Source: Alphaproteobacteria bacterium
GTDB taxonomy: Bacteria > Pseudomonadota > Alphaproteobacteria > Rs-D84 > CASDRH01
DNA: 64,000 nucleotides
Direction of reading: 5' to 3'
Assembly (NCBI GenBank): GCA_025210155.1
Contig: JAOASE010000003.1
Span: forward strand, 11,519 to 75,518
Of this stretch, positions 1,976 through 20,329 are shown in pieces. Under the pieces are notes generated by a model, which saw only the letters and a list, made by a program, of their open reading frames with translations, did not search any database and had not been told where the DNA came from. The first letter of the stretch is position 1, and the number at the start of each line of letters is the position of its first letter. The translations under genes were made by a program, and so were the position numbers.

Positions 1976-2833
1976 ATGAAAAACAGCGAAGTATTAGAGA
2001 GTTTAAAAAACTCTAAATCAGATCATTTCAAGGCAGGTTTCTTTAAAATTCTAGGTATACTAGGAACCGGAAAGGAAATTTATGAAAATTATCTAAACGA
2101 TAAGGTTAATCTTTCCCCATCAAAGATAACATTTAAGGATATGATAAAAGAATCTTTTAAAGAATCTTTCTTTCCAGTTTTATCCAAGGATATTCCGCAA
2201 AGAAAAGAGTTCCTAGAAGACTTAGTAACCTTATGGAAGTTGTTGCGAAAACCTAAGTTAGTAAGCCGAGGGCCATTACCTGAAGACATAATTGTTCCAA
2301 GAAACCTATATTTTTTGGAAAGTTATTATGAGAATGACGGAAGAATCGAACCTGAGGATATTAAGCAGTTAATGCAGTATCCTGAATTTTCAAATCTGCT
2401 TCAAAACAAAATTGCGTGGCTCAAGGAAAAGAAATACCAAAATTATTTTGGTTTTAACTTTAAGGCAGATTATATAGCTATGATTACCTTCGAGCATAAT
2501 AAGTGGATGTTTCCATACTTTTTTAAAAGATATGAAAATATCGAAAAATTTATGGAAGAAGGTCGTAGTTGTAAATCATGGATAGATGTTTTCGTTAAGA
2601 ATTATGAAAGAATTGGAGAAGCATTCGATGATTTTTTTATAATACCAGAAGATACGCTTATTAATTACAGCTTAAGTTATTGGCCTGACGTTGATATCGA
2701 AAATCCAAAAGGGAACTTTAAAAAGTTTCTGGATAAAGCGAAAACACTGGATGAAAAAGACAGGAACAACGAAACCATTATAGGTAGAAGAGTAGATGAT
2801 TTAAAAATGTGTTATGACATTTTAAGTGATTAA
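1976..2833 (+). CDS. Hypothetical protein (285 aa)
   Basis: Long ORF with a clean intrinsic terminator immediately downstream. No recognisable motif. Confidence 0.5.
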   Translation: MKNSEVLESLKNSKSDHFKAGFFKILGILGTGKEIYENYLNDKVNLSPSKITFKDMIKESFKESFFPVLSKDIPQRKEFLEDLVTLWKLLRKPKLVSRGPLPEDIIVPRNLYFLESYYENDGRIEPEDIKQLMQYPEFSNLLQNKIAWLKEKKYQNYFGFNFKADYIAMITFEHNKWMFPYFFKRYENIEKFMEEGRSCKSWIDVFVKNYERIGEAFDDFFIIPEDTLINYSLSYWPDVDIENPKGNFKKFLDKAKTLDEKDRNNETIIGRRVDDLKMCYDILSD

Positions 2834-2859
2834 AATTTACTTCTCTTTAATTAAAGAAG

Positions 2860-2888
2860 CACCTGCAAATTCGCAGGTGTTTTTTTAT
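2860..2888 (+). terminator. Intrinsic terminator (cacctgc-aaattc-gcaggtg + T8)
   Basis: Perfect 7-bp stem, 6-nt loop, T-run. Confidence 0.8.
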
Positions 2889-2979
2889 TTCTCACAACAT
2901 ATTTCATAAAATATTTGATAAAACTCTGTTTTTATAGTAATATATACACAGACAAGTTAAACTTTAAAACACATCTGTC

Positions 2980-3372
2980 ATGGGGAATATACCATTAGAA
3001 TTATTTAGCCTTGGGCTTAGCAGCATTGGGGTTATAGCTGAAAATCCTCCTCCAATTAATGAAGGAATTAATCTTTCAGGGGTAGAGGAAGCTGATATTA
3101 TAATGGAAGTAGAAGGAGAAAATGGTTATGAAAGACTATTTCAATCTCCTAAAACAACATTTTGTCATGCGGCAAAGGGAAAAGAAATTCGTTTCGGTTC
3201 TAGATTAGACGGTGATAAAGAAGTAAAAATCAGTAGTTATAAAGCTCCTGAAGGAAAAAAACTAAAATTCAGGCTTTATCATGGAGGATGTTTTTTACAT
3301 TTATCATTTACTGAAATAGAAACCTACGCAAGTAGTAGTATGTTAGGAACTTTTAAAATTAACAAGGTTTGA
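2980..3372 (+). CDS. Hypothetical protein, tandem paralog A (130 aa)
   Basis: Shares QSP...FG..L..DK..K.SS.K...KFRLY...G with the next ORF. Followed by a hairpin plus T-run at about 3433-3477. Confidence 0.45.
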   Translation: MGNIPLELFSLGLSSIGVIAENPPPINEGINLSGVEEADIIMEVEGENGYERLFQSPKTTFCHAAKGKEIRFGSRLDGDKEVKISSYKAPEGKKLKFRLYHGGCFLHLSFTEIETYASSSMLGTFKINKV

Positions 3373-3544
3373 AAATTTCTATCATATTCCAAATCACCCT
3401 CACACAAAGACCCAAACGGAAAACATAATAACACTCGTAAGTATTTTAATTACGGGTGTTTTTATTTTATTAAATTCATTGACTTATGAAATATCTATAG
3501 TAATATGCCAGAACATTACAAACAATTTAAACTTAATTTAGAAT

Positions 3545-3925
3545 ATGAACGATTTAACATTTCTTTATGTTTCTTCAAGATTAAACGAGACAGGATGTGT
3601 AGTAGAAGGTGGTAACATAGTAGAGCCACCGGTTGACTTAGAAAATGCAGATTTCGGAGAATTCCTTCTTGAATACCAAAATGAAGACGGTAAATACTTA
3701 AGAGTGCTCCAATCTCCTCAAATCCTAATATGCATAGAAGAAGATAACATAAGATTAATATTTGGAAAGAACTTAAGCAAAGATAAAAAAACTTATAAGT
3801 CTTCTAAAGAAGATGAAAATATAAAATTCAGACTTTATTACAATGGAGTTGTAATAAATATGGAAGTTAAAGAAGCCGCTATATCTAGCGACACAAATTT
3901 AACAGGAACTTTATACGTAAAATAA
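3545..3925 (+). CDS. Hypothetical protein, tandem paralog B (126 aa)
   Basis: Paralogous to 2980..3372 (LRVLQSPQ...KFRLYYNG). Followed by the terminator gcgcccc-ataata-ggggcg plus T. Confidence 0.45.
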   Translation: MNDLTFLYVSSRLNETGCVVEGGNIVEPPVDLENADFGEFLLEYQNEDGKYLRVLQSPQILICIEEDNIRLIFGKNLSKDKKTYKSSKEDENIKFRLYYNGVVINMEVKEAAISSDTNLTGTLYVK

Positions 3926-7290: not shown

Positions 7291-7599
7291 ATGTCAGCAG
7301 AAGTAGAAATGATGAGAACTGGAATAGACATCTATTGGTGGATATCTGTCATAGAAATCCCAATCTTAGGACTTCTATTCTATCTTATAAGGAATAATGG
7401 GGAAGCAACTATTAAAGGGGATGAAAAGTTAGAGAATAAACTAGACTATCAAATTTCAGAATTACTAAAAGAATTATCAGAATTCAAGCTATATTCAGCA
7501 AAAGAATATGCATCAATATCATACATAAAAGATCTAGAAAAACGATTGACAAATCACTTAATAAGGATAGAAGAAAAAGTAGAAAATACAAAATTATAA
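7291..7599 (+). CDS. Hypothetical protein with an N-terminal TM helix and a coiled-coil (102 aa)
   Basis: SD GGGGAGAGA precedes the ATG. Hydrophobic IYWWISVIEIPILGLLFYLI segment. Confidence 0.4.
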   Translation: MSAEVEMMRTGIDIYWWISVIEIPILGLLFYLIRNNGEATIKGDEKLENKLDYQISELLKELSEFKLYSAKEYASISYIKDLEKRLTNHLIRIEEKVENTKL

Positions 7600-7652
7600 A
7601 CAAGTTTATTTAAAGTAAAGCTAGAATCGAATTGCAGAGAAGGGAGAGAACA

Positions 7653-8177
7653 ATGAGGCAAAGCATAAAAAAGGCACAATTACCAAATAATTTTAAAATA
7701 AGATTTATCATTTCAAAAACAATATTTGATGAATTAAAGAGCATGCCTCACAAAACCAAACAAAACTTCGAACTAATAGAAACTATGGCTCAAAGCATAA
7801 TAAATCTTCTAACGAATAATTCAAAAGAAGTTATCAAAACGACATGCAAAACGCTGTATGAGAATATAAGGTATACGCAAAAATATTTAATGCATCACAC
7901 AGAAGATGACCTAAAAAAATTTAACTATGGACTTACAAAAGATGTGTATGATGAAGCTTTCCGACAATATAAAGAAAACAAATTTTATAAATCATATCAA
8001 AGAACTGTTACTAAATTATTAAAAGGGTATCACGAACACAAAACAGAAGATAAATATAGAGAAAAACTTTTTCACTATCATAAAGAACAACACTTTCCAG
8101 ATTGGGCAAAAGAACAGTCTGAAATATTGAAGCTCTCGGGCTTCATTTTTTATAACCAAATAAGATGGAGTAAATAA
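7653..8177 (+). CDS. Hypothetical protein
   Basis: ORF 7632..8177. The ATG at 7653 follows GAAGGGAGAGAA, the likely start. Confidence 0.4.
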   Translation: MRQSIKKAQLPNNFKIRFIISKTIFDELKSMPHKTKQNFELIETMAQSIINLLTNNSKEVIKTTCKTLYENIRYTQKYLMHHTEDDLKKFNYGLTKDVYDEAFRQYKENKFYKSYQRTVTKLLKGYHEHKTEDKYREKLFHYHKEQHFPDWAKEQSEILKLSGFIFYNQIRWSK

Positions 8178-8179
8178 AA

Positions 8180-8398
8180 ATGAGAATATTAATAAAAGAA
8201 CTACTAAAAGTACTAGTCGTAGATATTGCAAAATTTGTAATAAACATAGCTAGTAAACCAGTTAAAGATATTGCAAGTAGTGTTGCAAAAGCAAGCGCAA
8301 ATGCAGTCGCAGTAAGAGCAGAAAAAACAAAAGCAGATATAAAAGAAATGATTGAATCATCTAAAGAAAAGCTGGAGGAAAAACTAAATGACAAATAA
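8180..8398 (+). CDS. Small Ala/Lys-rich protein (72 aa)
   Basis: Overlaps the next ORF in ATGA...TAA fashion, suggesting translational coupling. Confidence 0.3.
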   Translation: MRILIKELLKVLVVDIAKFVINIASKPVKDIASSVAKASANAVAVRAEKTKADIKEMIESSKEKLEEKLNDK

Positions 8399-9164
8399 CG
8401 AAATCAAAAAAGAAGTTAAGGAAGAAACTAAAAAGGTTGAAGAAGTTACAATTTCTAAAAAACCAGATTTCTTACCAAAAAAATTCTGGGATGAAGAGCA
8501 GGGCACAACAAGGCTGGAAGAAATGTCTAAAAGTTATAAAGAGTTAGAAAAAAAACTTTCTCAATTAAGCCAAGAAGTAAATTCCCTTAAGGAGGAAAAG
8601 ATAGCAGCAGAGGATAAAAATCTTTTAAAAGGAGAAAGCTTACCATCATCTCCAAAACAATACTTAGACGAAATTGATTTCGATATAATAAATGCTTCAG
8701 AAGAAATTAACCAAGTTCTTTTCGATGCGAAATATTCCGTTGAGCAAGTAAGAACTTTCTACGATGTTTTAGTTAAGTTTATAATGCCTGAAATCTTAGA
8801 GCTATATCATGATGTGAAAGCATATAATGATCTAGAAAAATTAAAGGATTATTTTGGCGGAGAAGAAAAATTTGCTTCTATCTCTAGACAGATTAATTCC
8901 TGGGCAATTAAAAACCTTGAAAGCAGAGTTTACAAGAGTTTATCAAAGGATAGCAAAGGAGTTATTGCTATGTATAAAATGATGCAAGAAGAAAAAAACA
9001 ACAATTCCTCATCAATAAATTCTCTACAAGACGGACACAAAAAAACAAGAGAAGAAGAGGAAAAACATCTTAAAGATATGATGAAAAATCCTTCTTACTG
9101 GCGAGACAAAGATCCTGAATATAGAAACAAAGTAGAAGAAGGTTTTAAGAATCTATACACATAA
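8388..9164 (+). CDS. Putative scaffolding protein (T7 gp9-like C-terminus)
   Basis: Acidic coiled-coil protein. Its C-terminal MMKNPSYWRDKDPEYRNKVEEGF resembles the T7 gp9 C-terminus (…MSDPRYRTDANYRRQVEQKV), as recalled. Lies upstream of the capsid gene. Confidence 0.55.
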   Translation: MTNNEIKKEVKEETKKVEEVTISKKPDFLPKKFWDEEQGTTRLEEMSKSYKELEKKLSQLSQEVNSLKEEKIAAEDKNLLKGESLPSSPKQYLDEIDFDIINASEEINQVLFDAKYSVEQVRTFYDVLVKFIMPEILELYHDVKAYNDLEKLKDYFGGEEKFASISRQINSWAIKNLESRVYKSLSKDSKGVIAMYKMMQEEKNNNSSSINSLQDGHKKTREEEEKHLKDMMKNPSYWRDKDPEYRNKVEEGFKNLYT

Positions 9165-9378
9165 ATTAGTATAATAAATAGTATTTAAAGTATTTTGTGC
9201 GAATAGATGTAAAGATGATTTTTATATTTGGTATTGTGTATATTTTAATACTCAATTGCCAAAGATTAAAATCATTTTTTACGATTAGCTCGTGCAAAAG
9301 AGTTTAAATAATAATAATAGCTTGAAAAAAAGAACTAATAAGATATAATACGCTCATCAAAATAAGAAAGGAGCAATT

Positions 9379-9987
9379 ATGCCTTATAACAATAACAGAC
9401 GCGGTCCATATAAAAGTAACAACCGCAGAAGAGCAAAAAGCAAAAAAGGTTTGATTTATAAAATAAACGAAAACCTAATAATGAAATGGTCAATATTATT
9501 ACTAGTTATCTTCCATTTCGCAATGAGCGCTATGTTTAGAGCAGAAAACTTAAACCAAGTATTTGGTCTATCGGCAATAGCTGAATTTGGAGTTCTATCT
9601 TTAAGAATATTCCAATCATTCTTATTCATTTTCTTACCATTAGTATTAATCAAATACTTCAAAGTTAGAAAAGCAAGAATAAGCTTAAGCTCAATAGCAA
9701 GAAAAGCAATATGCAAAAGAATTGGCCTAGCAGTATTATTAGGTCTAGCAATCACATTGCTATCATTCTTCTCACCAAACAACGGTGGAGAATTCTTAGT
9801 AAGAAGATATGTAGGAATTTTTGCTATACACTCAATCTATGTGTTCTTAATGATTTCAGCATTAACAGGAATTTGGAAAGGTTTCTCTTTCATCTTCGAC
9901 GCTGAAAAACAACAAAACAGAAGAAGAAATAACAACGGATATAATAAAAATAATAGACGTCCAAGAAGAAATTATTCTAAAAAATAA
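9379..9987 (+). CDS. Membrane protein with four TM helices and Arg/Asn-rich N- and C-terminal tails
   Basis: N-terminal NNRRGPYKSNNRRRAKSKK and C-terminal KQQNRRRNNNGYNKNNRRPRRNYSKK tails flank the hydrophobic helices. Strong SD AAGGAG. Terminator at 10017-10050. Confidence 0.5.
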   Translation: MPYNNNRRGPYKSNNRRRAKSKKGLIYKINENLIMKWSILLLVIFHFAMSAMFRAENLNQVFGLSAIAEFGVLSLRIFQSFLFIFLPLVLIKYFKVRKARISLSSIARKAICKRIGLAVLLGLAITLLSFFSPNNGGEFLVRRYVGIFAIHSIYVFLMISALTGIWKGFSFIFDAEKQQNRRRNNNGYNKNNRRPRRNYSKK

Positions 9988-10016
9988 TTTTAGTTTCTAC
10001 TGAGAAGTAATTACAA

Positions 10017-10050
10017 AGCCCTAAGTTTTCCTAGGGCTTTTTTGTTATTT
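10017..10050 (+). terminator. Intrinsic terminator (agcccta-loop-tagggct + T-run)
   Basis: Perfect 7-bp stem, 8-nt loop, TTTTTGTTATTTTT. Confidence 0.75.
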
Positions 10051-10337
10051 TTCTAAATAGCAATTAAGAGACAAACCGAAAGGTCCTCTAAACAAAAAAC
10101 AAATAAAATCAAGGCGTTTTAATCAAATTAAAACACAACCTATCGCAATTAAATAAATCAAAAAAAATAATATCACGAAAATCTTCGCAAATAAGTATTT
10201 AGGGTTTAACCGAGTATTTTGTGCGAAGGAAGGTAAAATAAATTTTAAATCGCAGGGAGTTTATAGTTAATAAATGACCAAGATTTAATAATTGTAATTT
10301 TGCCTTAAATTCGTGCAAAAGACGAAAGGTAAAAAAA

Positions 10338-11165
10338 ATGGCTAATACTATAGACCAATCATTCATAAAAAACTTCGAAGCAGAAGTTCACTTAGCATAC
10401 CAACAAACAGGTACAAAATTAAGATCAACAGTTAGAGTTAAAAACGACGTAATTGGATCAGCAACAGTATTCCAATCAGTAGGTCAAGGAACAGCATCTA
10501 CTAAAGAAAGAAACGGCTTAATCCCAGTGATGAACGCAACACACACACCAGTAGAATGTGATCTACAAGACTACTACGCAGGCGACTGGGTAGATAAACT
10601 AGATGAATTAAAAACAAACATCGACGAAAGAGCTGTTATCGCATCAGCAGGTGCATACGCTTTAGGTAGAAAAACAGATGAGCTAATCATCACAGAACTG
10701 TCTAAATCTACTCAAGAAGTTGTTGAAAATTCAGAAGGCTTAACAAAAGGCAAAATCATGAAAGCTATCGAAACATTAAACGCAAATAATGTTCCAGACG
10801 ATGGTCAAAGATATGCTGTTGTAGGCGTTCACCAATGGACTGAATTATTAAATATGCCAGAGTTCACTTCAGCAGATTACGTAGGTGATAACTATCCACT
10901 AGTTAACGGTGCAGAAGCAAGAAAATGGATGGGGGTAATTTGGATCTTACACACAGATTTGCCATTAAGCACAACAACAAGAGAATGCTTCATCTACCAC
11001 AAGAATGCAATCGGTCACGCAATCGGACAAGATGTAAAAACAGACATCAGCTGGCAAGGTGAAAGAGCTGCAAACTTTGTATCAAACTGCATGAGCCAAG
11101 GTTCAGTTCTTATCGACGCAAAAGGCGTAGTAAAAGTATCTTGCGACGACACAACATCAGTTTAA
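10338..11165 (+). CDS. Major capsid protein, T7 gp10-like (short form)
   Basis: The C-terminal GERAANF...GVVKVS resembles T7 gp10 ...ERARRANF...AVVFKV. Position between the scaffold and gp11-like genes. A strong terminator follows immediately, as Tφ follows gene 10 in T7. Confidence 0.6.
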   Translation: MANTIDQSFIKNFEAEVHLAYQQTGTKLRSTVRVKNDVIGSATVFQSVGQGTASTKERNGLIPVMNATHTPVECDLQDYYAGDWVDKLDELKTNIDERAVIASAGAYALGRKTDELIITELSKSTQEVVENSEGLTKGKIMKAIETLNANNVPDDGQRYAVVGVHQWTELLNMPEFTSADYVGDNYPLVNGAEARKWMGVIWILHTDLPLSTTTRECFIYHKNAIGHAIGQDVKTDISWQGERAANFVSNCMSQGSVLIDAKGVVKVSCDDTTSV

Positions 11166-11189
11166 AAACTGCTTGAGATATAGAATATA

Positions 11190-11216
11190 AGACCGTTTTC
11201 AAAGCGGTCTTTTTCT
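11190..11216 (+). terminator. Intrinsic terminator directly after the capsid gene (agaccg-ttttcaaag-cggtct + T)
   Basis: 6-bp stem plus T-run. Same position as T7 Tφ. Confidence 0.7.
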
Positions 11217-11374
11217 CATTTAAAGCATACATTTTGAATCAACACTTTAACTAATTTACAATATCCAAGTTGACTCAACACTTCAATTGAATCAATTAAT
11301 TAAGAATATAAGCCTAAGAATCGGAAAAGACTCAAACTTTAACCAATAAAATCACCAATTTACAGGAGAACAAA

Positions 11375-11953
11375 ATGCCATCATCTACAACAAAAATCGA
11401 TATTTGCTCAAAGGCCTTAATGAAGATAGGAGCAAGTCCAATCCAATCACTAGAAGAGAATACTTCAGAAAGCATTATCTCATCTCAATTTTATGACATA
11501 GTAAAAGAGAGTTTATTATCAGAACATGAATGGTCTTTCGCAACAAAAACACAGGAATTAAATATCCTGAATGTAGAGAGTGATCAAGAAGGATACGAGA
11601 ATGTTTTCCAATTACCACATGACCTAATAAGAGTGTTAAGCATAAGCTCTTCAGCAAATGGAATTTCTATAGACTATAAACTTTATCAAGATGAAATTCA
11701 TACCAACGCAGAGAAAGTTTATATCACATACATATATAGAGTCGGAGAAAAATACTTTCCTCAATTCTTTGTAAATTTAATGACTACTTCTTTAGCAAAA
11801 GAATTTGTTATGCCACTGACGGAAGATAACTCAAAATATAACTCATTAATGAACGAAAGTATAATGCTTTTATCAAAAGCTAAAAACCAAGATTCAGATC
11901 AAACAAAAATTAAAAAGATAAAAACATTTAGTTTAATTTCAAGCCGTAATTAA
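11375..11953 (+). CDS. Tail tubular protein A (adaptor), T7 gp11-like
   Basis: 192 aa (T7 gp11 is 196 aa). ICSKALMKIGASPIQSLEE...SEHEWSF resembles gp11 VNDILASIGEPPVSTLEG...SRGWTF. Confidence 0.7.
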   Translation: MPSSTTKIDICSKALMKIGASPIQSLEENTSESIISSQFYDIVKESLLSEHEWSFATKTQELNILNVESDQEGYENVFQLPHDLIRVLSISSSANGISIDYKLYQDEIHTNAEKVYITYIYRVGEKYFPQFFVNLMTTSLAKEFVMPLTEDNSKYNSLMNESIMLLSKAKNQDSDQTKIKKIKTFSLISSRN

Positions 11954-11981
11954 AAAATTAAATTAATAAAGGATACAATAT

Positions 11982-14063
11982 ATGCAAAAGTCATACACAA
12001 AAAGCAACAACTTCAGATTTGGAGAAGTGAATTATTCTGGCTTAGAGAACTTAGGATCCAAGTATAAAAACAATACATCTTTCCTTCAAAGAAATATGCA
12101 GGTAGAAGAAACTGGTCAAATCAAACGAAGACCTGGATTAAAGAAAATTTCAGACCTTGAAGAGAATGCTAAGATTATTTCTATGCAGACTAGCATAGAA
12201 GACAAATATATTTTAGCTATAGGAGAAAGTAAGATAAGAGTTTTCAAGGACGATAAGCTAATCTGTACAATATCAAAAAGCCCCTTTAAAAAAGAAATAC
12301 TTTCAAGTTTGCAATATATCTCTAAAGATAATAAAATTTTCGTTACCCACCCAGACATAGAAACAAAAGTCATAGTAAAAGAAAGCGATACTAATTGGAA
12401 AATTCAAAATATAGAATTTGATATAGATTCTTATACGGGTGAAAGTTTTGAGCCATTCGCATACTTTGAAGATATGCAAAATAAAGGTATAAAAGCAACT
12501 CCTATAATAATAGATCCAGAAGATTTAGATTGGGATCAAGAGGGCGCTGGTGAATGGGTTTTAAATCCAGATTGGATGGAGAGAAATGAACCAGCATATA
12601 CTTTCGTAGAGGACGAATCTACACCTCCCCCTCAAGTAGAAATAACATGCTCCGATATATATGATATATTCAATTTCGATTGCAAAAATATAAAAATGAG
12701 AATTGGAGATGGGGAATATCGAATTACCCACGTAGTAACAACAAGGAAGTTACTAGGAGAAATAATAAAGCTTCCTACTGATTTTAAAGAGAAAAATCCT
12801 TCAGTCTCAGAACAAGCCTTTTCAAAAAAGCGAGGTTGGATAAGAAGTATAAATTTCTATCAAAACAGAATGGTGGTAGGTGGATCAAAATCGCTTCCCA
12901 AAAGAATATGGATGTCTAAAACAGATAACTTCTTTAATTTTAATTTAGGATCAGCATACGATGGAGATGCTATAGAATTTGATATACTTTCCCAAAATGA
13001 AGAAACTATTCAAACAATATTTACAGGAAGACATCTTCAGGTTTTTACAAATAATGCTGAATGGATAGTAACAGGATTTCCTATCACACCAACTAGTATA
13101 CAATTGCAGAAACAAACAGAACTAGGTTCAAACCAAGACAACTATCTTAGCCCTCAGTTTATAGAAGGTTCTACAATTTTTATATCTAAGAACAAATCAG
13201 AAGTTTGCGAATTCTTCTTTGGAGAAATAGAGGAGCAATATCAAACAGAAAACCTAGTTAGCTTATCTAATCATTTATTAAATAAACCACTAGAAACATC
13301 TTACAATAAAAATGAAAAAATATACTTTATAGTAAACAACGATGGAAGCCTAGCCACATTGACCATGAGTAAAAATTATGGAGTTAGATCTTGGGGACTA
13401 TGGGAAACAAAAGGTTCATTTATCTCAGTGGAAAGTTTGAATGAAGAAACTTATGTGGTAGTAAGAAGAAACGACAAACCATATTTAGAAAAGTTTGATT
13501 TCACAGAATTAAATACCTATACAGATTGCGAGATTACCATATCCAGAGAGGATGATAAAAGAGATAATATATTTGAAATTATAGATTATCCAGAACTTTT
13601 AAAAATAAAGGACTTAAAAGAGCAAACTAATGCAATAATTTTAGCAATAGGAGACGGCGAATTCCTAGGAGAACCTATCATAGAGAATGATGCTATAAAA
13701 CTTCAAAAACCAGTTAACAATCTAAGATTAGGAATAGCATATAGGCATATCCTTGCTCCATCACCAGAGATGATAGAATTTAAAAAGATAAGATTGCTGG
13801 AAGTTTCTTTCAGATTATCAGAAAGTAAAAACCTTTCAATAGATACTGGGCAAGGAATAAAGAATATATCATTAAAAGAATACGATAATTCAGAAACATT
13901 CCTTTCTTCAGAAAATATAAAAGGAACTTTCTCAGGGGATATAAATATAAAATCATTCGGATGGAAAAAAGCAGGAAGCCAAATACTTTGGAAAATAGAT
14001 GATTATTATCCAAACAATTTCAAGGTAATTTCATCACTCTCAAAATTTATTGTAAATAAATAA
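11982..14063 (+). CDS. Tail tubular protein B (nozzle), T7 gp12-like
   Basis: 693 aa. N-terminal ETGQIKRRPGLKKISDL...KIRVFKDDK resembles gp12 ETEGLQKRPPLVFLNTL...GIRVFDLSGNEK. Internal FYQNRMVVGGS...NFFNFNLGS resembles gp12 FFRNRLGFLSG...KYFNFYPAS. Confidence 0.7.
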   Translation: MQKSYTKSNNFRFGEVNYSGLENLGSKYKNNTSFLQRNMQVEETGQIKRRPGLKKISDLEENAKIISMQTSIEDKYILAIGESKIRVFKDDKLICTISKSPFKKEILSSLQYISKDNKIFVTHPDIETKVIVKESDTNWKIQNIEFDIDSYTGESFEPFAYFEDMQNKGIKATPIIIDPEDLDWDQEGAGEWVLNPDWMERNEPAYTFVEDESTPPPQVEITCSDIYDIFNFDCKNIKMRIGDGEYRITHVVTTRKLLGEIIKLPTDFKEKNPSVSEQAFSKKRGWIRSINFYQNRMVVGGSKSLPKRIWMSKTDNFFNFNLGSAYDGDAIEFDILSQNEETIQTIFTGRHLQVFTNNAEWIVTGFPITPTSIQLQKQTELGSNQDNYLSPQFIEGSTIFISKNKSEVCEFFFGEIEEQYQTENLVSLSNHLLNKPLETSYNKNEKIYFIVNNDGSLATLTMSKNYGVRSWGLWETKGSFISVESLNEETYVVVRRNDKPYLEKFDFTELNTYTDCEITISREDDKRDNIFEIIDYPELLKIKDLKEQTNAIILAIGDGEFLGEPIIENDAIKLQKPVNNLRLGIAYRHILAPSPEMIEFKKIRLLEVSFRLSESKNLSIDTGQGIKNISLKEYDNSETFLSSENIKGTFSGDINIKSFGWKKAGSQILWKIDDYYPNNFKVISSLSKFIVNK

Positions 14064-14150
14064 TATTAACTATTGATTTAAACTTTCATATGAGTAAACT
14101 ACGATGAGTTATTTTATATAACTAAATTTAAATATGAAGGAGAAATCATA

Positions 14151-14429
14151 ATGAAAAAAGTATTACTTACAGCTATTATAGCTTTAACAGCATCATGTGC
14201 TACAAGACCTCACCAAGTTACTAACGTTAAAGTAGCTCCAAGTGAATTAAAAGTTGGAAAATCTTGTGAAGATAGATTTTTACACATGTTCCCAATGGGT
14301 TCAAAAAATGGAAACTCAATTCTTAGAGCTAAAGAAAGTGCTGGTATTACACAAATTATGAGTGTCGATGTAGAAGGTAGAAACTGGATCTTAGGTTCAA
14401 CTGAATGTACTATCGTTACAGGTAAATAG
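14151..14429 (+). CDS. Small lipoprotein (signal peptide plus lipobox LTASC)
   Basis: MKKVLLTAIIALTASC. Strong SD AAGGAGAAATCATAATG. Own terminator hairpin at about 14445-14480. Confidence 0.5.
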   Translation: MKKVLLTAIIALTASCATRPHQVTNVKVAPSELKVGKSCEDRFLHMFPMGSKNGNSILRAKESAGITQIMSVDVEGRNWILGSTECTIVTGK

Positions 14430-14516
14430 TTTACAAAACTAAAGAATTAAAATTACAGTCGGAAATATCCGGCTGTTTTTTTTATACAATAATCAATCAC
14501 AAAAGGAGAGATAAAG

Positions 14517-14993
14517 ATGATATCACTAATATCTAGTGTCAACTCACTAGGATCTGATCTAATTTCAGGGAGCAGTTCAAAGGACGAAAGCCGATTGGCT
14601 AGAGAAAGAGCAAAAGAAGAAAGCAAAATAAATAAAGAAATAGCAGAAGTTAATAAGTACTATTCTGATTTAGAAAGTAGAAATCTTTTAGAAGAAAATC
14701 TAAGCAATATTTCAGCAAACTACGGAGCTTATAATATGAGTTCTACAGAAGGTTCTGCAAAAGCCGCAAAGAATAGAGCCGTTAGAGATTACAATAATGA
14801 CACAGCTCAAAGGCAAAAGCTATTTGATCTAAATATGGAAAAAGCAGACAAACAACTTCAATTTGATACAGAGGCAAATCTATTAGAATATGATAAAAAT
14901 TCTAAAAGAAATAGCCTTAACAATTTCGAAAATATATTAAAAGAAATCGAAAGCCACGACGAAACTCTAAGATCTCAAAGATATAGAACATAA
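14517..14993 (+). CDS. Hypothetical coiled-coil protein (phage module)
   Basis: SD AAAGGAGAGATAAAGATG. No recognisable motif. Confidence 0.4.
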   Translation: MISLISSVNSLGSDLISGSSSKDESRLARERAKEESKINKEIAEVNKYYSDLESRNLLEENLSNISANYGAYNMSSTEGSAKAAKNRAVRDYNNDTAQRQKLFDLNMEKADKQLQFDTEANLLEYDKNSKRNSLNNFENILKEIESHDETLRSQRYRT

Positions 14994-15005
14994 AGGAGAG
15001 AAAGT

Positions 15006-15719
15006 ATGATAACTAACAAATCAGTCCTAATAACATACCTAGCAAATGGAACTTCAAAACAATTTTCATTCCCATTTAAAATATATTCAGCAGATGAATT
15101 AAAAGTGTCCATAAATGGAAAAGAAATACAAACTACATTCATTATAGAATATCACGAAGATGTAGAAGGTGGAATGATAACATTTGAAACAGCTCCAGTT
15201 ACAAATTCAGAAGTCTCAATCAAGAGAGTTCTAGATATTACGAGAAAGCACGACTTTCAATCAGGTGGAAGCTTCAGAGCTGAAGACATAAATCAAGAAC
15301 TAGACTACCAAACTCTGTGCCTTCAACAAGTTAATTACGAACTTGGGAATGCAATGAAATTTGGATCAGATGTCGAAGATCAAGATATAGACTTAACTGT
15401 TCCAGAACCAAAAGCGGGTTGTATGATGGTTTGGAACAAAACAGAAAATGGACTAGAACTAAGAAACGCTGACCTAATAATAGAAGCAAGCAATGAAGCT
15501 CATGACTATGCAACTATCTGCCAAGATATGTACGATGCAATGTCTACATTATTAGGAACTTCAGAGACAGCGGGTTTAGCAGGAAAAATCCAAGACATAT
15601 TAACTTTCTTAAATAATAAATTCCCAGAAGACTTTGATGATAATGGTGAGATAAAAGATAGCTCATTAGTATCTAATGACTTAGGAGAAATCACAGAAGG
15701 CGATAATGGCGGAATTTAA
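15006..15719 (+). CDS. Tail fibre protein, N-terminal (tail-attachment) domain only, T7 gp17-like
   Basis: MITNKSVLITYLANGTSKQFSFPFKIYSADELKVSING...VSIKRVLDITRKHDFQSGGSFRAEDINQ parallels T7 gp17 MANVIKTVLTYQLDGSNRDFNIPFEYLARKFVVVTLIG...IELRRVTSTTDRLVDFTDGSILRAYDLN. The protein is 237 aa against 553 aa for gp17. Confidence 0.7.
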   Translation: MITNKSVLITYLANGTSKQFSFPFKIYSADELKVSINGKEIQTTFIIEYHEDVEGGMITFETAPVTNSEVSIKRVLDITRKHDFQSGGSFRAEDINQELDYQTLCLQQVNYELGNAMKFGSDVEDQDIDLTVPEPKAGCMMVWNKTENGLELRNADLIIEASNEAHDYATICQDMYDAMSTLLGTSETAGLAGKIQDILTFLNNKFPEDFDDNGEIKDSSLVSNDLGEITEGDNGGI

Positions 15720-16347
15720 AGATGAAAAAAATTTAAAAGAAAATATAGAAAAAATAACATTTTTAGATTTCATAGAATTATGGAATCAAGATCAGGAGCA
15801 AACAACTCCTGCCCACCATAAAAAGATTGCACGGTGGTTAGAAAAATTATGGCTTGAAGAAAAGTCAGACAGAAGAGGGGTTTTAATGTCCTTCAGAGGG
15901 TCAGGTAAATCTACCATAGTAGGTTTATTCTGCTGTTGGCTACTTTATCAAAACCCAAATCTAAGAATATTGGTAATATCAGCAGAAGAACGCCTAGCTG
16001 GTAAAATGAGCAAAAATGTCAAAGCCATAATAGAAAGACATGCGCTGCTTTCACATCTTATACCAAAGAAAAAGGGAGGGCGATGGGCAAGCAAAGAATT
16101 CACCATAGAAAGGTTCAAAGAAATGAGAGACCCTTCAATGCTTGCCATAGGACTTTCAGGAAACGCAACGGGATCTAGAGCCGATATAATAATATGTGAC
16201 GATGTCGAAGTCCCAAATACTTGCGATACTGAATTGAAAAGAGAAGAGTTAAGAGAGAGATTGGCAGAGTTAGAATTTATAATAACGCCAAAAGGAATGA
16301 TTCTATATGTGGGTACTCCCCATACAGAAAATAGTATTTATTATTAA
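15706..16347 (+). CDS. Terminase large subunit, ATPase domain (T7 gp19-like), N-terminal ORF of a split gene
   Basis: Walker A FRGSGKST and Walker B IIICDDVEV. LRILVISAEER, TGSRADIIICDDVEVPNT and LYVGTPHTE match T7 gp19 LKILIVSASKER, TGSRADIIIADDVEIPSN and IYLGTPQTE. Ends with TAA at 16345-16347. Confidence 0.85.
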   Translation: MAEFKDEKNLKENIEKITFLDFIELWNQDQEQTTPAHHKKIARWLEKLWLEEKSDRRGVLMSFRGSGKSTIVGLFCCWLLYQNPNLRILVISAEERLAGKMSKNVKAIIERHALLSHLIPKKKGGRWASKEFTIERFKEMRDPSMLAIGLSGNATGSRADIIICDDVEVPNTCDTELKREELRERLAELEFIITPKGMILYVGTPHTENSIYY

Positions 16348-16681
16348 AAAAAGAATCAGTAAAAGGGAAATATTCATTTTTGGACAAAAAAATATGTCAA
16401 GAAAGTTCTAAGAAAAAACAGTGGCTTACAACTTAAAAATAAGAAAAATGAAAAAAATGTCAAAAAATAGTTGACAAAATAAAATGAAAGTTCTAAACTA
16501 AACTTACTTTCGGAGATCTCCCTACTTATTTCTCTCTCCTCTTTAAGAAGACTCCGAAAGTTCTTTTTAATCCTCGGAGTTTCCTTTATATATCCTTTCC
16601 TCCTTTTTTTAAGAGCTCCGAGGTTTATTTAAAATGCGCCGCAAGGCGTTTTTTTATTGTCTAAAATCCAGGGGAGAATAA
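16348..16681 (+). other. 334-bp non-coding insertion splitting the terminase gene; carries two ~64-bp tandem hairpin repeats, a TTGACA-N17-TAAACT promoter-like site and a GCAA-tetraloop terminator
   Basis: Hairpin A 16506-16561 (actttcggag / ctccgaaagt, 10 bp, 36-nt CU-rich loop). Hairpin B 16572-16623 (cctcggag / ctccgagg, 8 bp, CU-rich loop). Units A and B align as direct repeats. 'gaaagttct' occurs three times. Terminator 16636-16657 (cgcc-gcaa-ggcg + T7). Then the SD GGGGAGAATAAATG. Confidence 0.6.
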
Positions 16682-17551
16682 ATGCAAAAGATTTACAACA
16701 AAACAATAGATAACGAATTAAAACCTAAAGAAGAAGAAACAGAAAAGCTTCTATCAGGATATAAAAGATTAAAAATTCCTTTGTTATCAGAGGCTGGAAG
16801 ATCAGCTTGGTCAAAAAGATTTCCTCTGAAAAGAATTAAAGAACTTCGTAAACGAGTAGGGGAAAAGAAATTCCAAGCTCAAATGCAATTACAACCAGTA
16901 AACTTAACAGATCCATTTTTCGATATAAATGATTTCAAAACATATGACATATGCTTTTCAAAAACAGAGCAAAACTTCCGATCAGTCTATAAAATTAATA
17001 ATGAAAAAGTCGTCCAGGCCTCATCCTATTGGGATCCATCTTCATGTGGAAGAAAAAGAGACGGTTCAGTTCTAGTCATAGCATTCAAAGATAACAAAGA
17101 CAGAATATACATAGAAAAAATCATATACTTAAACTCAATTATCAAAAGAGGCGAGGAAGGAATAACGAAACAAATAGAAGAAGTTATTTCTATATTAAAA
17201 AAATACGATATAGGAATAATTCACATAGAAACAAATGGTATAGGGAAATTTATCCCAGAATTAATAAACAAGGAAATTCGCCGACTACGACTAAAAATAG
17301 AAGTCTCAGAAATTTATAATCATAACAGCAAGAGTATAAGAATTATGGAAGGAATAGAACCTCTAGTTTCAGCAGAAATAATAAGCTTTAATAAAACAAT
17401 ATTTTCTAAGGCAAATCAGTTCATAAATGAAATTAAAAATTGGCGACCAAACATAGACGGAAAAGATGATGGATTGGATGCCGTTTCAGGCATAACATTA
17501 AATAGGTTTAAGAATATAATTCCATCACCATCAATTATGAAATTTTATTAA
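16682..17551 (+). CDS. Terminase large subunit, nuclease (C-terminal) part, T7 gp19-like
   Basis: RIKELRKRVGEKKFQAQMQLQPVNLTD matches T7 gp19 [28 protein letters not shown]. An in-frame TAA lies immediately upstream of the ATG. Confidence 0.75.
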   Translation: MQKIYNKTIDNELKPKEEETEKLLSGYKRLKIPLLSEAGRSAWSKRFPLKRIKELRKRVGEKKFQAQMQLQPVNLTDPFFDINDFKTYDICFSKTEQNFRSVYKINNEKVVQASSYWDPSSCGRKRDGSVLVIAFKDNKDRIYIEKIIYLNSIIKRGEEGITKQIEEVISILKKYDIGIIHIETNGIGKFIPELINKEIRRLRLKIEVSEIYNHNSKSIRIMEGIEPLVSAEIISFNKTIFSKANQFINEIKNWRPNIDGKDDGLDAVSGITLNRFKNIIPSPSIMKFY

Positions 17552-17630
17552 AACTTTTTACTTTTATAAATATATGATTTTTGTTATAATAAAGCCAAAA
17601 TATACTAATAATTTTAAAAGGAGTTAGATT

Positions 17631-18077
17631 ATGACAAAATTCAATCAAAGAGGTAGAAGTATTGTAGAAGTTATCGGTGTTCTAGCAATAGCTTCAATCG
17701 GTATCGCTCTTGCAATGAGAACTTATCAAAAGAATGATGCAAAAGTAAAAATTACAAAGACTATGTATAATATTTCAGAATTAACAGATAGTATTAAAAC
17801 TATATACTGGGGAAGAAACAGCTATAGTGGAATAAATGTTACTCGTCTAGAAAATAAAGGTGTGGATCCTAAATTCTTAAGAGATGCATATGGTACAAGT
17901 TTAGTAATAGGTTCTCAATCTCCATTTAGTTCATATACAATCCAAATTGTAAATATTGAAGATCAAGAAGATTGCTATAAATTTGCTGCTAAAAAACTAG
18001 AAGGTATGGATGAAGCTGAAACGACAGATACATGCTCATCTACATCTAATAAAACAGTTACTTTCACTTTTAATTAA
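17631..18077 (+). CDS. Type IV pilin-like protein (prepilin-type N-terminal domain), tandem paralog 1
   Basis: N-terminus MTKFNQRG|RSIVEVIGVLAIASIGIALA: a Gly followed by Glu at +5 and a hydrophobic helix, as in class III signal peptides (KGFTLIELMIVVAII...). SD AAAGGAG. Confidence 0.55.
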   Translation: MTKFNQRGRSIVEVIGVLAIASIGIALAMRTYQKNDAKVKITKTMYNISELTDSIKTIYWGRNSYSGINVTRLENKGVDPKFLRDAYGTSLVIGSQSPFSSYTIQIVNIEDQEDCYKFAAKKLEGMDEAETTDTCSSTSNKTVTFTFN

Positions 18078-18089
18078 GGAATTTATAAG

Positions 18090-18557
18090 ATGAGAAAAAA
18101 TAATCAAAAAGGTATGTCTATCGTAGAAGTTTTAGGAACTTTAGCAATAGTAACAGTAATGTCAGTTCTTATAGTTTCTTTCTATACGAAAGTATCTACT
18201 AAAGCTACATTCAAAAGAACAGAATTCTTATTAGAAGATATTAGAGGAAAAATAAATTCTATTTATATAGATGGTAATTATTCAACTCTAACACTAGATA
18301 ATTTAAATGATGAACTAGAAGGCCAAGAATTAATAAAAGCAAAGCACCCATTCGGTGGAGACGTTGCTCTTTGCGGTTCATCAGACGGTTTCAATATCCG
18401 TTTAAGTGACCTAACTCTTGAAGAGGCTACTAAATTAGAAGCACTTGGAGAAGGTGACTTAGAAAAAGTATCAGACGATGTTTATAGAATAATTGCTTAC
18501 AAATCTAATAGTAAAGCAAAAGATTACGACAACACAAGATTTTGTAACAACTTCTAA
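18090..18557 (+). CDS. Type IV pilin-like protein, tandem paralog 2
   Basis: MRKNNQKG|MSIVEVLGTLAIVTVMSVLIV, the same architecture. Followed by the terminator 18584-18608. Confidence 0.55.
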   Translation: MRKNNQKGMSIVEVLGTLAIVTVMSVLIVSFYTKVSTKATFKRTEFLLEDIRGKINSIYIDGNYSTLTLDNLNDELEGQELIKAKHPFGGDVALCGSSDGFNIRLSDLTLEEATKLEALGEGDLEKVSDDVYRIIAYKSNSKAKDYDNTRFCNNF

Positions 18558-18583
18558 TAAAGTTTAAACAAAACTAATGAAAA

Positions 18584-18608
18584 CGCCCTCAATTGAGGGT
18601 GTTTTTTT
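18584..18608 (+). terminator. Intrinsic terminator (cgccctcaattgagggtg palindrome + T7)
   Basis: Perfect palindrome followed by a T-run. Confidence 0.75.
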
Positions 18609-18793
18609 ATAAAAAACTTCATCAAGCAATCTCTCCCCAGAGAGTTTTGGATAGTTTGCTTTAGATAGAAGCGAAAATGATTTTTAAATTTAATATTGCG
18701 TATATTAATACTCAATCGTTGAATTTCAAAATTATTTCTCGCGATTAGATGAAGTTAAATATACGAAACATTAATATTATAAAGGATAATTAA

Positions 18794-20329
18794 ATGAAAA
18801 AAATACCAGAAATAAACTCAAACTTAATAAATAGAGATACTCTAATTAAAGAATATAAAAAGGCAAAAAACAAAAGAAGCAATTGGGAAAATCTTTGGGA
18901 AGATTGCATAAAATATTCATCCCCAGAAAGATATGGAAGCTTCTATAACTCATTCCAAGAAGCTAATAAAAACAATGTAGATATCTACGACTCAACTGCA
19001 ATTTGCGGGGTAGAAAATTTAGTATCTACAATAGCTTCAAGCCTAACACCATCATATGAAAAATGGTTTAATTTATCTCTAGGAAATATCACTGTTGAGG
19101 ATGAAACAACAAAAGCAAATATTGAAAAAGATATAGAGAAAATAGAAAAAACAATTTCAGAAAATATCTCACTTTCAAACTTCGCGACAGAAATACAACA
19201 ATGTTACTTTGATCTAGTTACATTGGGAACCTCTTGTCTGTTCTTCGAAGAAAACCAAATAGGTAAAAAATCTGCCTTCAGGTTTAAATCAGTTCCATTA
19301 AACCAACTGACTATAGATGAAGACAGCGAAGGTAACGTAAATAAAATCTATAGAGAAACAAGCATAACGGTAGAAAATCTACAACTTCGTTTCCCAGAAT
19401 TTTTTGAAGAAAATGGTTTAAGTAACCTCGCAACAAAGTTCAAAGAAGAGCGAGTTAAACTGATTGAAGCTGTAGTCCCTAATATGAAAGAAATAGGACA
19501 GCAAGGCTTTGTATATACAGCATTTATAGAAGATGAAAAAAATATCCTTACACCTAAAAAATCAGCAAAAGAAGATAACATATTAGTATTAAAAGAAGGT
19601 GTCTTACAAAGCTCTCCATTCATTTGTTTCAGATGGTTAAAAACCTCAAGCGAAGTATATGGAAGATCACCGGTAATGAAGGTTCTTCCAGATATCAAAA
19701 CAGCAAACAAGGTTGTAGAACTAACTTTACAAAACGCAACAATAGCAATCTCAGGAGTATGGCAAGCTGAAGACGACGGAGTAATTAACTTTAATAATAT
19801 TGATCTGTCACCAGGTTCAATAATACCAAAAGCAATAGGCTCTCAAGGTCTATCACCATTACAAACAGGAGCTAACTTCAACGTTTCACAACTAGTCCTT
19901 TCAGACTTAAGAAACAATATAAATAAAGCGTTCTATACAGATGTTCTAGGTAAGCCGGAAGAAAGCAAACAAATGACTGCAACAGAAGTTTCTGCAAGAA
20001 CAATGGAATTATATCAAACACTTACAGCAGTGTTCTCACGACTTCAAACGGAACTCCTTACACCATTAATCGAAAGAGCAGTAAGCATCCTTAAAAGAAG
20101 AGGGGAGATAGCAAACCTAATCATAGATGGAAATATAATCTCATTAAAATACAGTTCACCAATAATGAACGTAAACAACGACAGAGAAATAGCAAACATC
20201 CAAAGATTTATATCTTCACTAAGCATTCTAGGAGAAGGTCAATTATCCAACATAATAGATACACAAAAGTTAATAAACCACCTAGCAGAAATCACATCCA
20301 TCCCAAAAGGATTGCTAAAAACAGCCTAG
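18794..20329 (+). CDS. Portal (head-to-tail connector) protein, T7 gp8-like
   Basis: 511 aa (T7 gp8 is 536 aa). The N-terminal YKKAKNKRSNWENLWEDCIKYSSP...IYDSTAICGVENLVSTIASSLTPSYEKW parallels gp8 RLKNDRAPYETRAQNCAQYTIP...WQAVGARGLNNLASKLMLALFPMQTW. Confidence 0.7.
   Translation: MKKIPEINSNLINRDTLIKEYKKAKNKRSNWENLWEDCIKYSSPERYGSFYNSFQEANKNNVDIYDSTAICGVENLVSTIASSLTPSYEKWFNLSLGNITVEDETTKANIEKDIEKIEKTISENISLSNFATEIQQCYFDLVTLGTSCLFFEENQIGKKSAFRFKSVPLNQLTIDEDSEGNVNKIYRETSITVENLQLRFPEFFEENGLSNLATKFKEERVKLIEAVVPNMKEIGQQGFVYTAFIEDEKNILTPKKSAKEDNILVLKEGVLQSSPFICFRWLKTSSEVYGRSPVMKVLPDIKTANKVVELTLQNATIAISGVWQAEDDGVINFNNIDLSPGSIIPKAIGSQGLSPLQTGANFNVSQLVLSDLRNNINKAFYTDVLGKPEESKQMTATEVSARTMELYQTLTAVFSRLQTELLTPLIERAVSILKRRGEIANLIIDGNIISLKYSSPIMNVNNDREIANIQRFISSLSILGEGQLSNIIDTQKLINHLAEITSIPKGLLKTA

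Follow-up and report, generated by a model that had tools for sequence, protein, structure and literature searches.

Why do two genes for type IV pilin-like proteins lie within a cluster of T7-type phage structural genes? The question is raised by a 64,000-nucleotide stretch of alphaproteobacterial DNA (contig JAOASE010000003.1 of assembly GCA_025210155.1, positions 11,519 to 75,518 of the forward strand), hereafter the window, in which two tandem genes, p1 and p2, stand between the terminase and portal genes of a T7-derived cluster. An original prediction, made from the sequence alone, had read both products as prepilin-peptidase substrates and had proposed that they are built into a phage-derived particle. 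Here, we find that homology identifies p1 and p2 as real members of the type IV pilin superfamily, and as type IVb-like (bundlin/PilS/TcpA-like) within it. As for their role, we hold with evenly balanced confidence that they are paralogous, shortened, orphan pilins of the type IVb family, which form an accessory cassette on the T7-derived cluster and are assembled by the pilus system of the host.

Anatomy of the pilin genes

The pilin cassette and the genes that flank it are as follows (lengths in amino acids, aa).

15706..16347, + strand: N-terminal piece of the terminase TerL (TerL-N, 213 aa); NF033889, E = 5e-78, model positions 2-188
16682..17551, + strand: C-terminal piece of TerL (TerL-C, 289 aa); NF033889, E = 1.7e-26, model positions 207-498; Pfam Terminase-T7_RNaseH-like; directly 5′ of p1
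17563..17590, + strand: promoter-like site TTTATA-16-TATAAT with TG before the second hexamer, in the 79-bp spacer between TerL-C and p1
17631..18077, + strand: p1, 148-aa orphan pilin of the type IVb family; leader MTKFNQRG; predicted cleavage between G8 and R9; Glu at +5; Cys116/Cys137
18090..18557, + strand: p2, 155-aa paralogous pilin-like protein; leader MRKNNQKG; predicted cleavage between G8 and M9; Glu at +5; Cys95/Cys152
18584..18608, no strand assigned: intrinsic-terminator hairpin CGCCCTCAATTGAGGGTG and T run, at the 3′ end of the pilin cassette
18794..20329, + strand: T7-type portal (head–tail connector); PF12236 Head-tail_con, E = 1.6e-107; directly 3′ of the pilin cassette

The tandem pair described in the original prediction is confirmed: p1 and p2 are intact open reading frames (ORFs) on the + strand, separated by 12 bp, and they are paralogues with 28% identity (E = 7e-11). 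Their place between a terminase gene, here split (15706-17551), and a portal gene (18794-20329) is likewise as described, with TerL-C on the 5′ side and the portal on the 3′ side. The ORF translations begin with MTKFNQRG followed by RSIVEVIGVLAIASIGIALA in p1 and with MRKNNQKG followed by MSIVEVLGTLAIVTVMSVLIV in p2. In each protein a short basic leader ends in Gly (−1), and Glu at +5 precedes a hydrophobic helix of about 20 residues. The leader counts 7 residues beyond the initiator Met, and the predicted mature proteins, which start with RSIVE in p1 and MSIVE in p2, have 140 and 147 aa, respectively. Across the window's ORFs of 40 aa or more, all of which were scanned, the pattern G-x4-E followed by at least 12 hydrophobic residues occurs only in p1, in p2 and in one spurious match. 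Shine-Dalgarno-like sites precede both genes, AAAAGGAG (17616-17623) for p1 and AAGGAA (18076-18081) for p2. At the sequence level, the Cys116/Cys137 pair of p1 aligns with the conserved pair of an alphaproteobacterial pilin family, and the Cys95/Cys152 pair of p2 is kept in its orthologue.

Both genes are under purifying selection. Compared with their orthologues on the metagenomic contig L004, the ratio of nonsynonymous to synonymous substitution rates (dN/dS) is 0.26 for p1 and 0.17 for p2, and the substitutions gather in the C-terminal domain. The pilin cassette is apparently a transcription unit of its own, as judged from the promoter-like site in front of p1 and the terminator behind p2. 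The orthologous spacer of L004 has the same promoter-like site (1211-1238) and the spacer of a more divergent locus, L094, carries a TG-TATAAT site at 9947-9975, so that such a site is present in the spacer between TerL-C and the pilin gene in three of the four lineages compared below. A hairpin homologous to that of the window follows the p2 orthologue in L004 (2230-2253), and in L093 (4549-4567) and L094 (10679-10698) an analogous terminator comes after the last pilin gene.

Family assignment

The curated models for the prepilin N-terminus give near misses. With the Pfam N_methyl model PF07963, p1 reaches 15.5 bits (E = 0.013) and p2 19.9 bits (E = 5e-4), both under the 21.2-bit cut-off, and with TIGR02532 p2 reaches 12.1 bits against a cut-off of 16.3. 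A profile–profile match to a pilin family complements these scores. p1 also matches the Pfam PilS and Bundlin models weakly, with single-sequence scores of about 14 bits against cut-offs of 22. Word-based homology searches returned one orthologue per protein, both on L004 and in the same gene order. A HMMER search with these four sequences against 1.84 billion representatives then gave 1035 proteins at E ≤ 1e-3, and the alignments span profile positions 3 to 120+, well past the hydrophobic helix. The proteins matched are those of uncultured Alphaproteobacteria and start with ...QSG-RSM(V/I)EMLGVLAIIGVLS. In an alignment (A2) that joins p1, p2 and the orthologue of each to 43 relatives, all 47 sequences carry G(−1) and E(+5), whereas matches to PilS are found in 35 (best E = 2e-19), to Bundlin in 30 (best E = 5e-25) and to PF07963 N_methyl in 22 (at E ≤ 0.01). 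The family has at least 7998 relatives in a collection of 5.8 billion proteins, and one source labels its members ‘type 4 pilus major pilin’.

Profile comparisons extend this similarity to the globular domain. Aligned by hhalign, p1/p2 match the alphaproteobacterial pilin family with a probability of 99.1% (E = 5.3e-19, 110 columns). The p1/p2 profile also matches BfpA bundlin (1zwt), a globular construct that lacks the N-terminal helix, at positions 49-125 with E = 1.1e-3, and the family profile matches BfpA (1.4e-19), TcpA (2.9e-10), PilS and CofA. The E-values of the HMMER, BfpA-profile and hhalign results led us to reject the idea that p1 and p2 are ordinary membrane anchors with a chance likeness to pilins. 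The architecture of a prepilin-peptidase substrate, with leader, Gly, Glu at +5 and helix, is thus borne out by the invariant G(−1) and E(+5) and by the hhalign match. The +1 residues, Arg in p1 and Met in p2, had been called atypical. However, Arg is invariant at this position in the alphaproteobacterial family and the aligned position in mature TcpA is Met; therefore, both residues are normal for the class. The invariant Arg at the predicted +1 position is itself worth recording as a family trait (G, then RSM(V/I)EMLGVLAIIGVLS; P0171-P0286; L005, L007, L103), since a basic residue beside the cleavage and methylation site is unusual among prepilins.

The closest known proteins are the major pilins of type IVb (BfpA 1zwt; TcpA 8uhf and 1oqv; PilS 1q5f; CofA 9iuf; PF05307/PF08805). 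In p1/p2 as in these pilins, a class III signal has Gly at −1 and Glu at +5, the +1 residue is other than Phe (Met in p2, which is also that of TcpA), the N-terminal helix is long and two Cys form a C-terminal pair; the globular motifs I-x-x-x-Y...Y-x-G(L/I) and (F/Y)-G-G are common to both as well. Typical type IVb leaders have 15-30 residues, whereas the leader of p1/p2 has 7; the mature proteins have about 140-147 aa compared with about 180-200, and p1 has Arg at +1. In addition, p1/p2 lack an adjacent assembly operon and their individual Pfam scores stay under the cut-offs. With the alphaproteobacterial ‘type 4 pilus major pilin’ family they have in common about 110 homologous columns, a start of the G-R-S-x-x-E type and, in p1, the Cys pair. 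They differ from it in being 40-60 residues shorter and 25-35% identical, in lacking the D-W-G-S segment, and in being orphans beside a T7-like terminase. The short leader, the missing 40-60 residues and the lack of an operon are thus the aberrant traits of the pair.

The name ‘GspH family’ given to p2 at NCBI was rejected, because TIGR01708, with a cut-off of 80 bits, scores p1 at 12 bits and does not match p2. GspH, the minor pseudopilin of the type II secretion system (T2SS), shares with p1/p2 the generic prepilin-type N-terminus; the globular domain of p1/p2 is type IVb-like instead. Pattern scans for relatives of p1/p2 found none in viral contigs, species-representative genomes or JGI metagenomes. 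A tblastn search with p1 against 50,697 phage records gave two matches, MT836177.1 (L010) and MT839721.1 (L011), which are labelled ‘UNVERIFIED: Bacteriophage sp.’ and come from human faeces. Their gene content (secretin, PilO, ATPase, platform protein, pilins) is really that of bacterial type IVb pilus operons, and they were rejected as examples of phage-borne pilins.

Typical members of the family stand at the end of canonical type IVb pilus operons (L005, L007, L103), in the order TcpQ, secretin, PAP_PilO, an unknown gene, T2SSE ATPase, T2SSF platform, one to four pilins and a second ATPase. The best non-orthologous match of the pair (P0005/P0153) belongs to these and is the sole pilin of its operon. 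A further observation concerns other short orphan pilins (150-155 aa) of this subfamily, which lie beside cell-envelope genes in gut Alphaproteobacteria (L096-L099; L101, L102); in some of them the pilin stop codon and the beginning of an OmpA-family gene overlap. The murA-amiC locus of the window holds no pilin remnant.

Structure model

The AlphaFold2 (AF2) model of p1 built from a 46-sequence alignment has a predicted local distance difference test (pLDDT) score of 78.3, whereas a shallow alignment gave an unusable model (pLDDT 50.8). The predicted fold consists of a helix at residues 11-58, a short αβ-loop and a four-stranded sheet, which is a pilin topology as far as the model goes. Among the fold matches in the PDB, the type IV pilin PilA1 alone is credible, with a probability of 0.84-0.94 and a template-modelling (TM) score of about 0.5, at a statistically weak Foldseek E-value of 0.07. 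No similar viral structural protein was found for the p1 model in BFVD.

Pilin–terminase linkage in four lineages

The short pilins (145-155 aa) closest to p1, P0007 and P0019, lie directly 3′ of a T7-like terminase in divergent lineages. In L093 (30% GC) a fibre stub comes first, followed by TerL-N, insert, TerL-C, P0007 and P0017. In L094/L095 (37% GC) the order is scaffold ... capsid, tail tube A, tail tube B, fibre stub, TerL-N, insert, TerL-C, P0019 and host genes, and the L094 pilin gene is placed between TerL-C and DEAD-OmpH-LpxD-FabZ. Together with the window and L004, this makes four lineages in which TerL-C is followed by one or more pilin genes on the same strand, across spacers of 55-104 bp, and in all four a terminator comes right after the last pilin gene. 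The four lineages also have in common a terminase split at the same residue and a fibre of only 191-237 aa; thus, they probably go back to one ancestral event. The flank beyond the pilins varies and is occupied by the portal, a bactofilin-like gene or a DEAD helicase.

p1, P0007 and P0019 are near-reciprocal best matches, and P0019 is closest to a group linked to dnaX (33-34% identity, 96 bits). The tandem pairs match gene for gene, p1 with P0007 and p2 with P0017, and therefore the pair must be old. Between the window and L094 the capsid is 64% identical and the pilins only 30%, which is the pattern expected of surface-exposed proteins.

Three observations were made alongside. Long pilin-like genes with Cys-rich C-terminal extensions lie just outside the LexA-like repressor of two related clusters (L076, 247-1227; L082, around 1489 on the − strand). 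A similar Cys-rich extension is present in P0017 of L093 (304 aa). The portal of L004 as called (2226-3836) starts inside the terminator hairpin at 2230-2253; the true start is probably further downstream, matching the 511-aa portal of the window.

The T7-derived cluster

The cluster extends over 7291-20329 of the window. Besides the terminase and portal it comprises a truncated fibre gene and the rest of the structural module, which spans 8388..14063 (+).

8388-9164, + strand: scaffold
10338-11165, + strand: capsid
11375-11953, + strand: tail tube A
11982-14063, + strand: tail tube B
15006..15719, + strand: truncated T7-type tail fibre, 237 aa; PF03906, E = 2.7e-6, residues 7-115; N-terminal tail-attachment domain and about 120 further residues

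The host genes around this block are a carbonic anhydrase and DJ-1 upstream and BirA downstream. The original prediction had noted a fibre without a receptor-binding domain and a lack of core proteins, and both points stand: the fibre is a 237-aa stub, whereas its homologues in the clusters that we call type C have about 680 aa and a pectate-lyase-like domain, and the window has neither a polymerase gene nor any large internal-core ORF. In its T7-derived cluster, no gene was recognised as an endolysin. The portal and TerL-C are under purifying selection, which is strong for the cluster, with dN/dS values against L004 of 0.07 and 0.12, respectively.

Relatives of the portal are found in 186 species-representative genomes at 40-45% identity. 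We fetched the best 80 of these 186 as sister loci (L013-L092), which are almost all from uncultured Alphaproteobacteria. The gene order is kept as portal, scaffold, capsid, tube A, tube B, with or without fibre, and terminase, and a LexA-like repressor and two small conserved proteins are present in 68-74 of the 80 fetched loci. In the flanks of L013, L069, L076 and L082, a stretch of about 10 kb showed no recognisable integrase, replication/polymerase or core-protein gene. Chromosomal sites are shared between several species: mreC-pbp2-rodA...purC-nadK adjoins the cluster in L058 and L069, prfB/AsmA does so in 19-25 metagenome-assembled genomes from the gut, and a YgjP-like gene is near the cluster in the window, L057 and L082. 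In type A, the commonest of the sister clusters, the interval from terminase to portal holds a small membrane/coiled-coil protein, an endolysin and a membrane protein; a homologue of the first is found elsewhere in the window, at 7291-7599. The statement that T7-like phages have nothing comparable to the pilins at this position needs qualification on this account, because the interval is an accessory slot for lysis genes in the commonest sister clusters.

Taken as a whole, the cluster looks like a domesticated, vertically inherited and possibly gene transfer agent (GTA)-like element of podovirus type. A Faecalibacterium element has been called the first podovirus-like GTA in a 2026 paper (PMC12946183). 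In the literature we found no description of a T7-like GTA in Alphaproteobacteria, of this cluster or of this pilin family. A PADLOC defence search gave only a spurious 17-bit match to AbiEii. Two genes of the cluster look non-phage: a 202-aa multi-pass membrane protein with Arg-rich termini (9379-9987) lies between the scaffold and capsid genes, and a 92-aa lipoprotein of the TRL family (14151-14429) lies between tube B and a conserved 158-aa coiled-coil protein.

Role of the pilins and alternative explanations

From the homology, anatomy and model, selection, linkage and terminator described above, we infer the following course for p1 and p2 as orphan pilins. They would be made as prepilins and held in the inner membrane by the N-terminal helix. 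A prepilin peptidase of the host would cut after Gly8, between Gly and Arg in p1 and between Gly and Met in p2, and a type IVb machine of the host (TcpQ-secretin-PilO-ATPase-PilC type), encoded elsewhere in the genome, would add them to a pilus. The fast-evolving and presumably disulfide-bonded C-terminal domain would be exposed on that pilus. Situated where the structure-only, T7-derived cluster ends with its terminase, the cassette may be expressed independently from its promoter-like site up to its terminator. It would be accessory cargo of the lysogenic-conversion type and no part of a virion. By analogy with known phage-borne pilins, the likeliest effect would be to alter or extend the pili of the host, for example in which pilus-binding phages or particles attach.

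Several results weigh against this reading. Both proteins score below the curated cut-offs of PF07963, TIGR02532, PF05307 and PF08805, and the Foldseek value of 0.07 is a weak fold match. No Peptidase_A24, T2SSE, T2SSF, secretin, TcpQ or PAP_PilO was found among the 57 window ORFs scanned with Pfam (nearly all ORFs of at least 200 aa), and it is by analogy with the relatives that a pilus machine is placed elsewhere in the genome. No terminator separates TerL-C from p1, so that read-through together with the late structural genes is possible, and promoter-like matches occur at chance frequency overall in the AT-rich DNA of the window, which makes the spacer site suggestive only. The portal is 3′ of the pilins only in the window and L004, and a pilin between terminase and portal is found in none of the 80 related clusters fetched via the portal. 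The link of the short pilins to the cluster could be mere adjacency, given that sister short pilins occupy host loci without T7-like genes, namely dnaX-pilin-OmpA-OmpH (L096-L099) and murA-pilin-amiC (L101, L102). On that explanation, which is unlikely in our estimate but carries real weight, p1 and p2 are ordinary host orphan pilins that merely neighbour the cluster: in an ancestor the cluster became the neighbour of a pilin gene to which it has no functional connection, and in the lineage of the window a rearrangement put the portal on the far side and trapped the pilins. The host loci of the closest sister pilins and the restriction of the portal to two loci agree with this, and so do the L094 pilin, which is in the same kind of surroundings and is nearest to the dnaX-linked group, and the split terminase and stub fibre, which are common to all four TerL-linked cases. 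However, the terminase–pilin junction outlasted changes of the other flank in every lineage, although the pilins are no more than 30-35% identical, and the spacers and the strand are alike in all four. The near-reciprocal best matches of p1, P0007 and P0019 and the gene-for-gene match of p1/p2 with P0007/P0017 also argue against chance neighbours.

The remaining explanations assign the pilins a part in the working of the cluster or of a phage. It is rather doubtful, in our judgement, that the cluster is a domesticated GTA-like particle system of T7 type for which the linked pilins serve as cell-surface partner, receptor or DNA-uptake filament. Such a role would suit a structure-only cluster under strong purifying selection, with relatives of its portal in 186 species-representative genomes, a kept gene order, shared sites beside housekeeping genes and no integrase or replication genes recognised in the four flanks. 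In addition, the pilin linkage coincides with the stub fibre (191-237 aa compared with about 680) in all four lineages, and a precedent exists in the SNJ2/SNJ1 pair, in which virus-encoded pili are receptors for another virus (PMC12426801). The argument is purely correlative, however, for a cluster known here from its genes alone, and many fibre-less sister clusters lack a pilin. Known GTAs, moreover, rely on capsule or competence proteins whose genes lie elsewhere. More doubtful again is the fuller proposal of a vertically inherited, GTA-like podovirus-type system in whose split-terminase/stub-fibre sub-lineage the co-inherited pilin pair is a dedicated surface partner for kin-specific delivery, replacing the lost fibre domain and the missing ejection proteins. 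The proposal that p1 and p2 are structural parts of the particle, as a substitute for fibre or adhesin or as a membrane anchor, is highly improbable. It drew on their position inside the structural module, between terminase and portal, and on the fibre without a distal domain, and the terminator-free junction of TerL-C and p1 would allow late co-transcription. Class III signal peptides, however, route proteins to the inner membrane and then to the pilus machine, which is incompatible with capsid and tail assembly in the cytoplasm, and the conserved Cys pairs imply an oxidising, extracytoplasmic location. With no structural similarity to viral proteins in BFVD, a cassette-like unit, L093 and L094 pilins at the outer edge of the cluster and fibre-less sisters without pilins, this part of the original prediction is unsupported. 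An equally slight chance is left for uncleaved, N-terminally anchored membrane proteins of the lysis type (spanin- or holin-like) in the slot after the terminase, where phiKMV-type phages keep their lysis genes. Proteins of about 150 aa with a single N-terminal membrane helix resemble i-spanins, type A sister clusters hold their lysis-type genes in this very interval, and the cluster of the window has no recognised endolysin of its own. Against this stand the significant homology to the globular domains of pilins, a model with an α-β fold and no coiled coil, the invariant G(−1) and E(+5), the lack of an adjacent lipoprotein partner and the presence of the small membrane/coiled-coil homologue elsewhere in the window (7291-7599).

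Comparison with phage-borne pilins

If they are orphan pilins carried as cargo, p1 and p2 match by genomic logic a class of phage- and provirus-borne pilins that was first described in 2025-26. Sztanko et al. 2026 (PMC12952977) describe the prophage pilins P-FimU and P-PilA, which take the place of host pilins or are added to them and block phages that bind to pili; P-PilA occurs, among others, in a podophage prophage of Xylella (PMC12952977). As with p1/p2, these pilin genes lie on phage-derived DNA, podophage-type prophages included, and come without pilus machinery of their own, and uptake into the host pilus is the mode proposed. They differ in being type IVa minor and major pilins of Pseudomonas and Xylella, carried by complete phages and with a demonstrated anti-phage effect, whereas p1/p2 are type IVb-like, belong to an element with structural genes only and have a function predicted from sequence. 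In the SNJ2 provirus of Natrinema, the tandem pilins PilA1 and PilA2 rely on the secretion machinery of the host and make up its dominant surface filament (Xiang et al. 2025, PMC12426801); these pili are receptors for a second virus, and the pilins are dispensable for SNJ2 itself (PMC12426801). The two tandem pilin genes within virus-derived DNA are the point of likeness to p1/p2. Unlike the host of the window, that of SNJ2 is an archaeon; the virus is non-tailed and there is no sequence relationship.

Pilins of prophages and proviruses constitute a viral route to rewriting the pilus surface of the host. What p1/p2 would add to this class is the type IVb type, an uncultured, small-genome host clade of Alphaproteobacteria and the attachment to a structure-only T7-type cluster. 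If the pilins are functionally tied to the cluster, they would offer a handle on cell recognition by a possible podovirus-type gene transfer agent. Whichever reading holds, the ‘GspH’ annotation is corrected, a very large family of pilins, with Arg always at +1, is defined, and a widely conserved T7-like cluster with a small RNA (sRNA)-like insert is exposed; this cluster and the terminase insert may be bigger leads than the pilins.

The insert in the terminase gene

Compared with a contiguous homologue, TerL-N stops at the residue that corresponds to 204, and the terminase pieces are separated by the following feature.

16348..16681, + strand: 334-bp insert with a promoter-like site, two hairpins with pyrimidine-rich loops and a terminator

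The corresponding inserts are at 160-489 in L004, 1899-2153 in L093 and 8635-9114 in L094. They have 255-480 bp and interrupt the terminase cleanly between the residues that correspond to 204 and 207. Rfam gave no match to a group I intron or to any other known RNA in the insert, and an intron is accordingly unsupported. A promoter-like site of the TTGACA type is present in all four lineages. The loops of the two long hairpins hold an invariant pyrimidine tract, CTCCCTaCTtatTTCTCTCTC, which is anti-Shine-Dalgarno-like and is kept in the four lineages. The fold of the insert has a z-score of −4.4, and its terminator lies just 5′ of the ribosome-binding site of TerL-C in the window, L004 and L094. 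By these features the insert looks like an sRNA gene inside the terminase gene, and it may be new.

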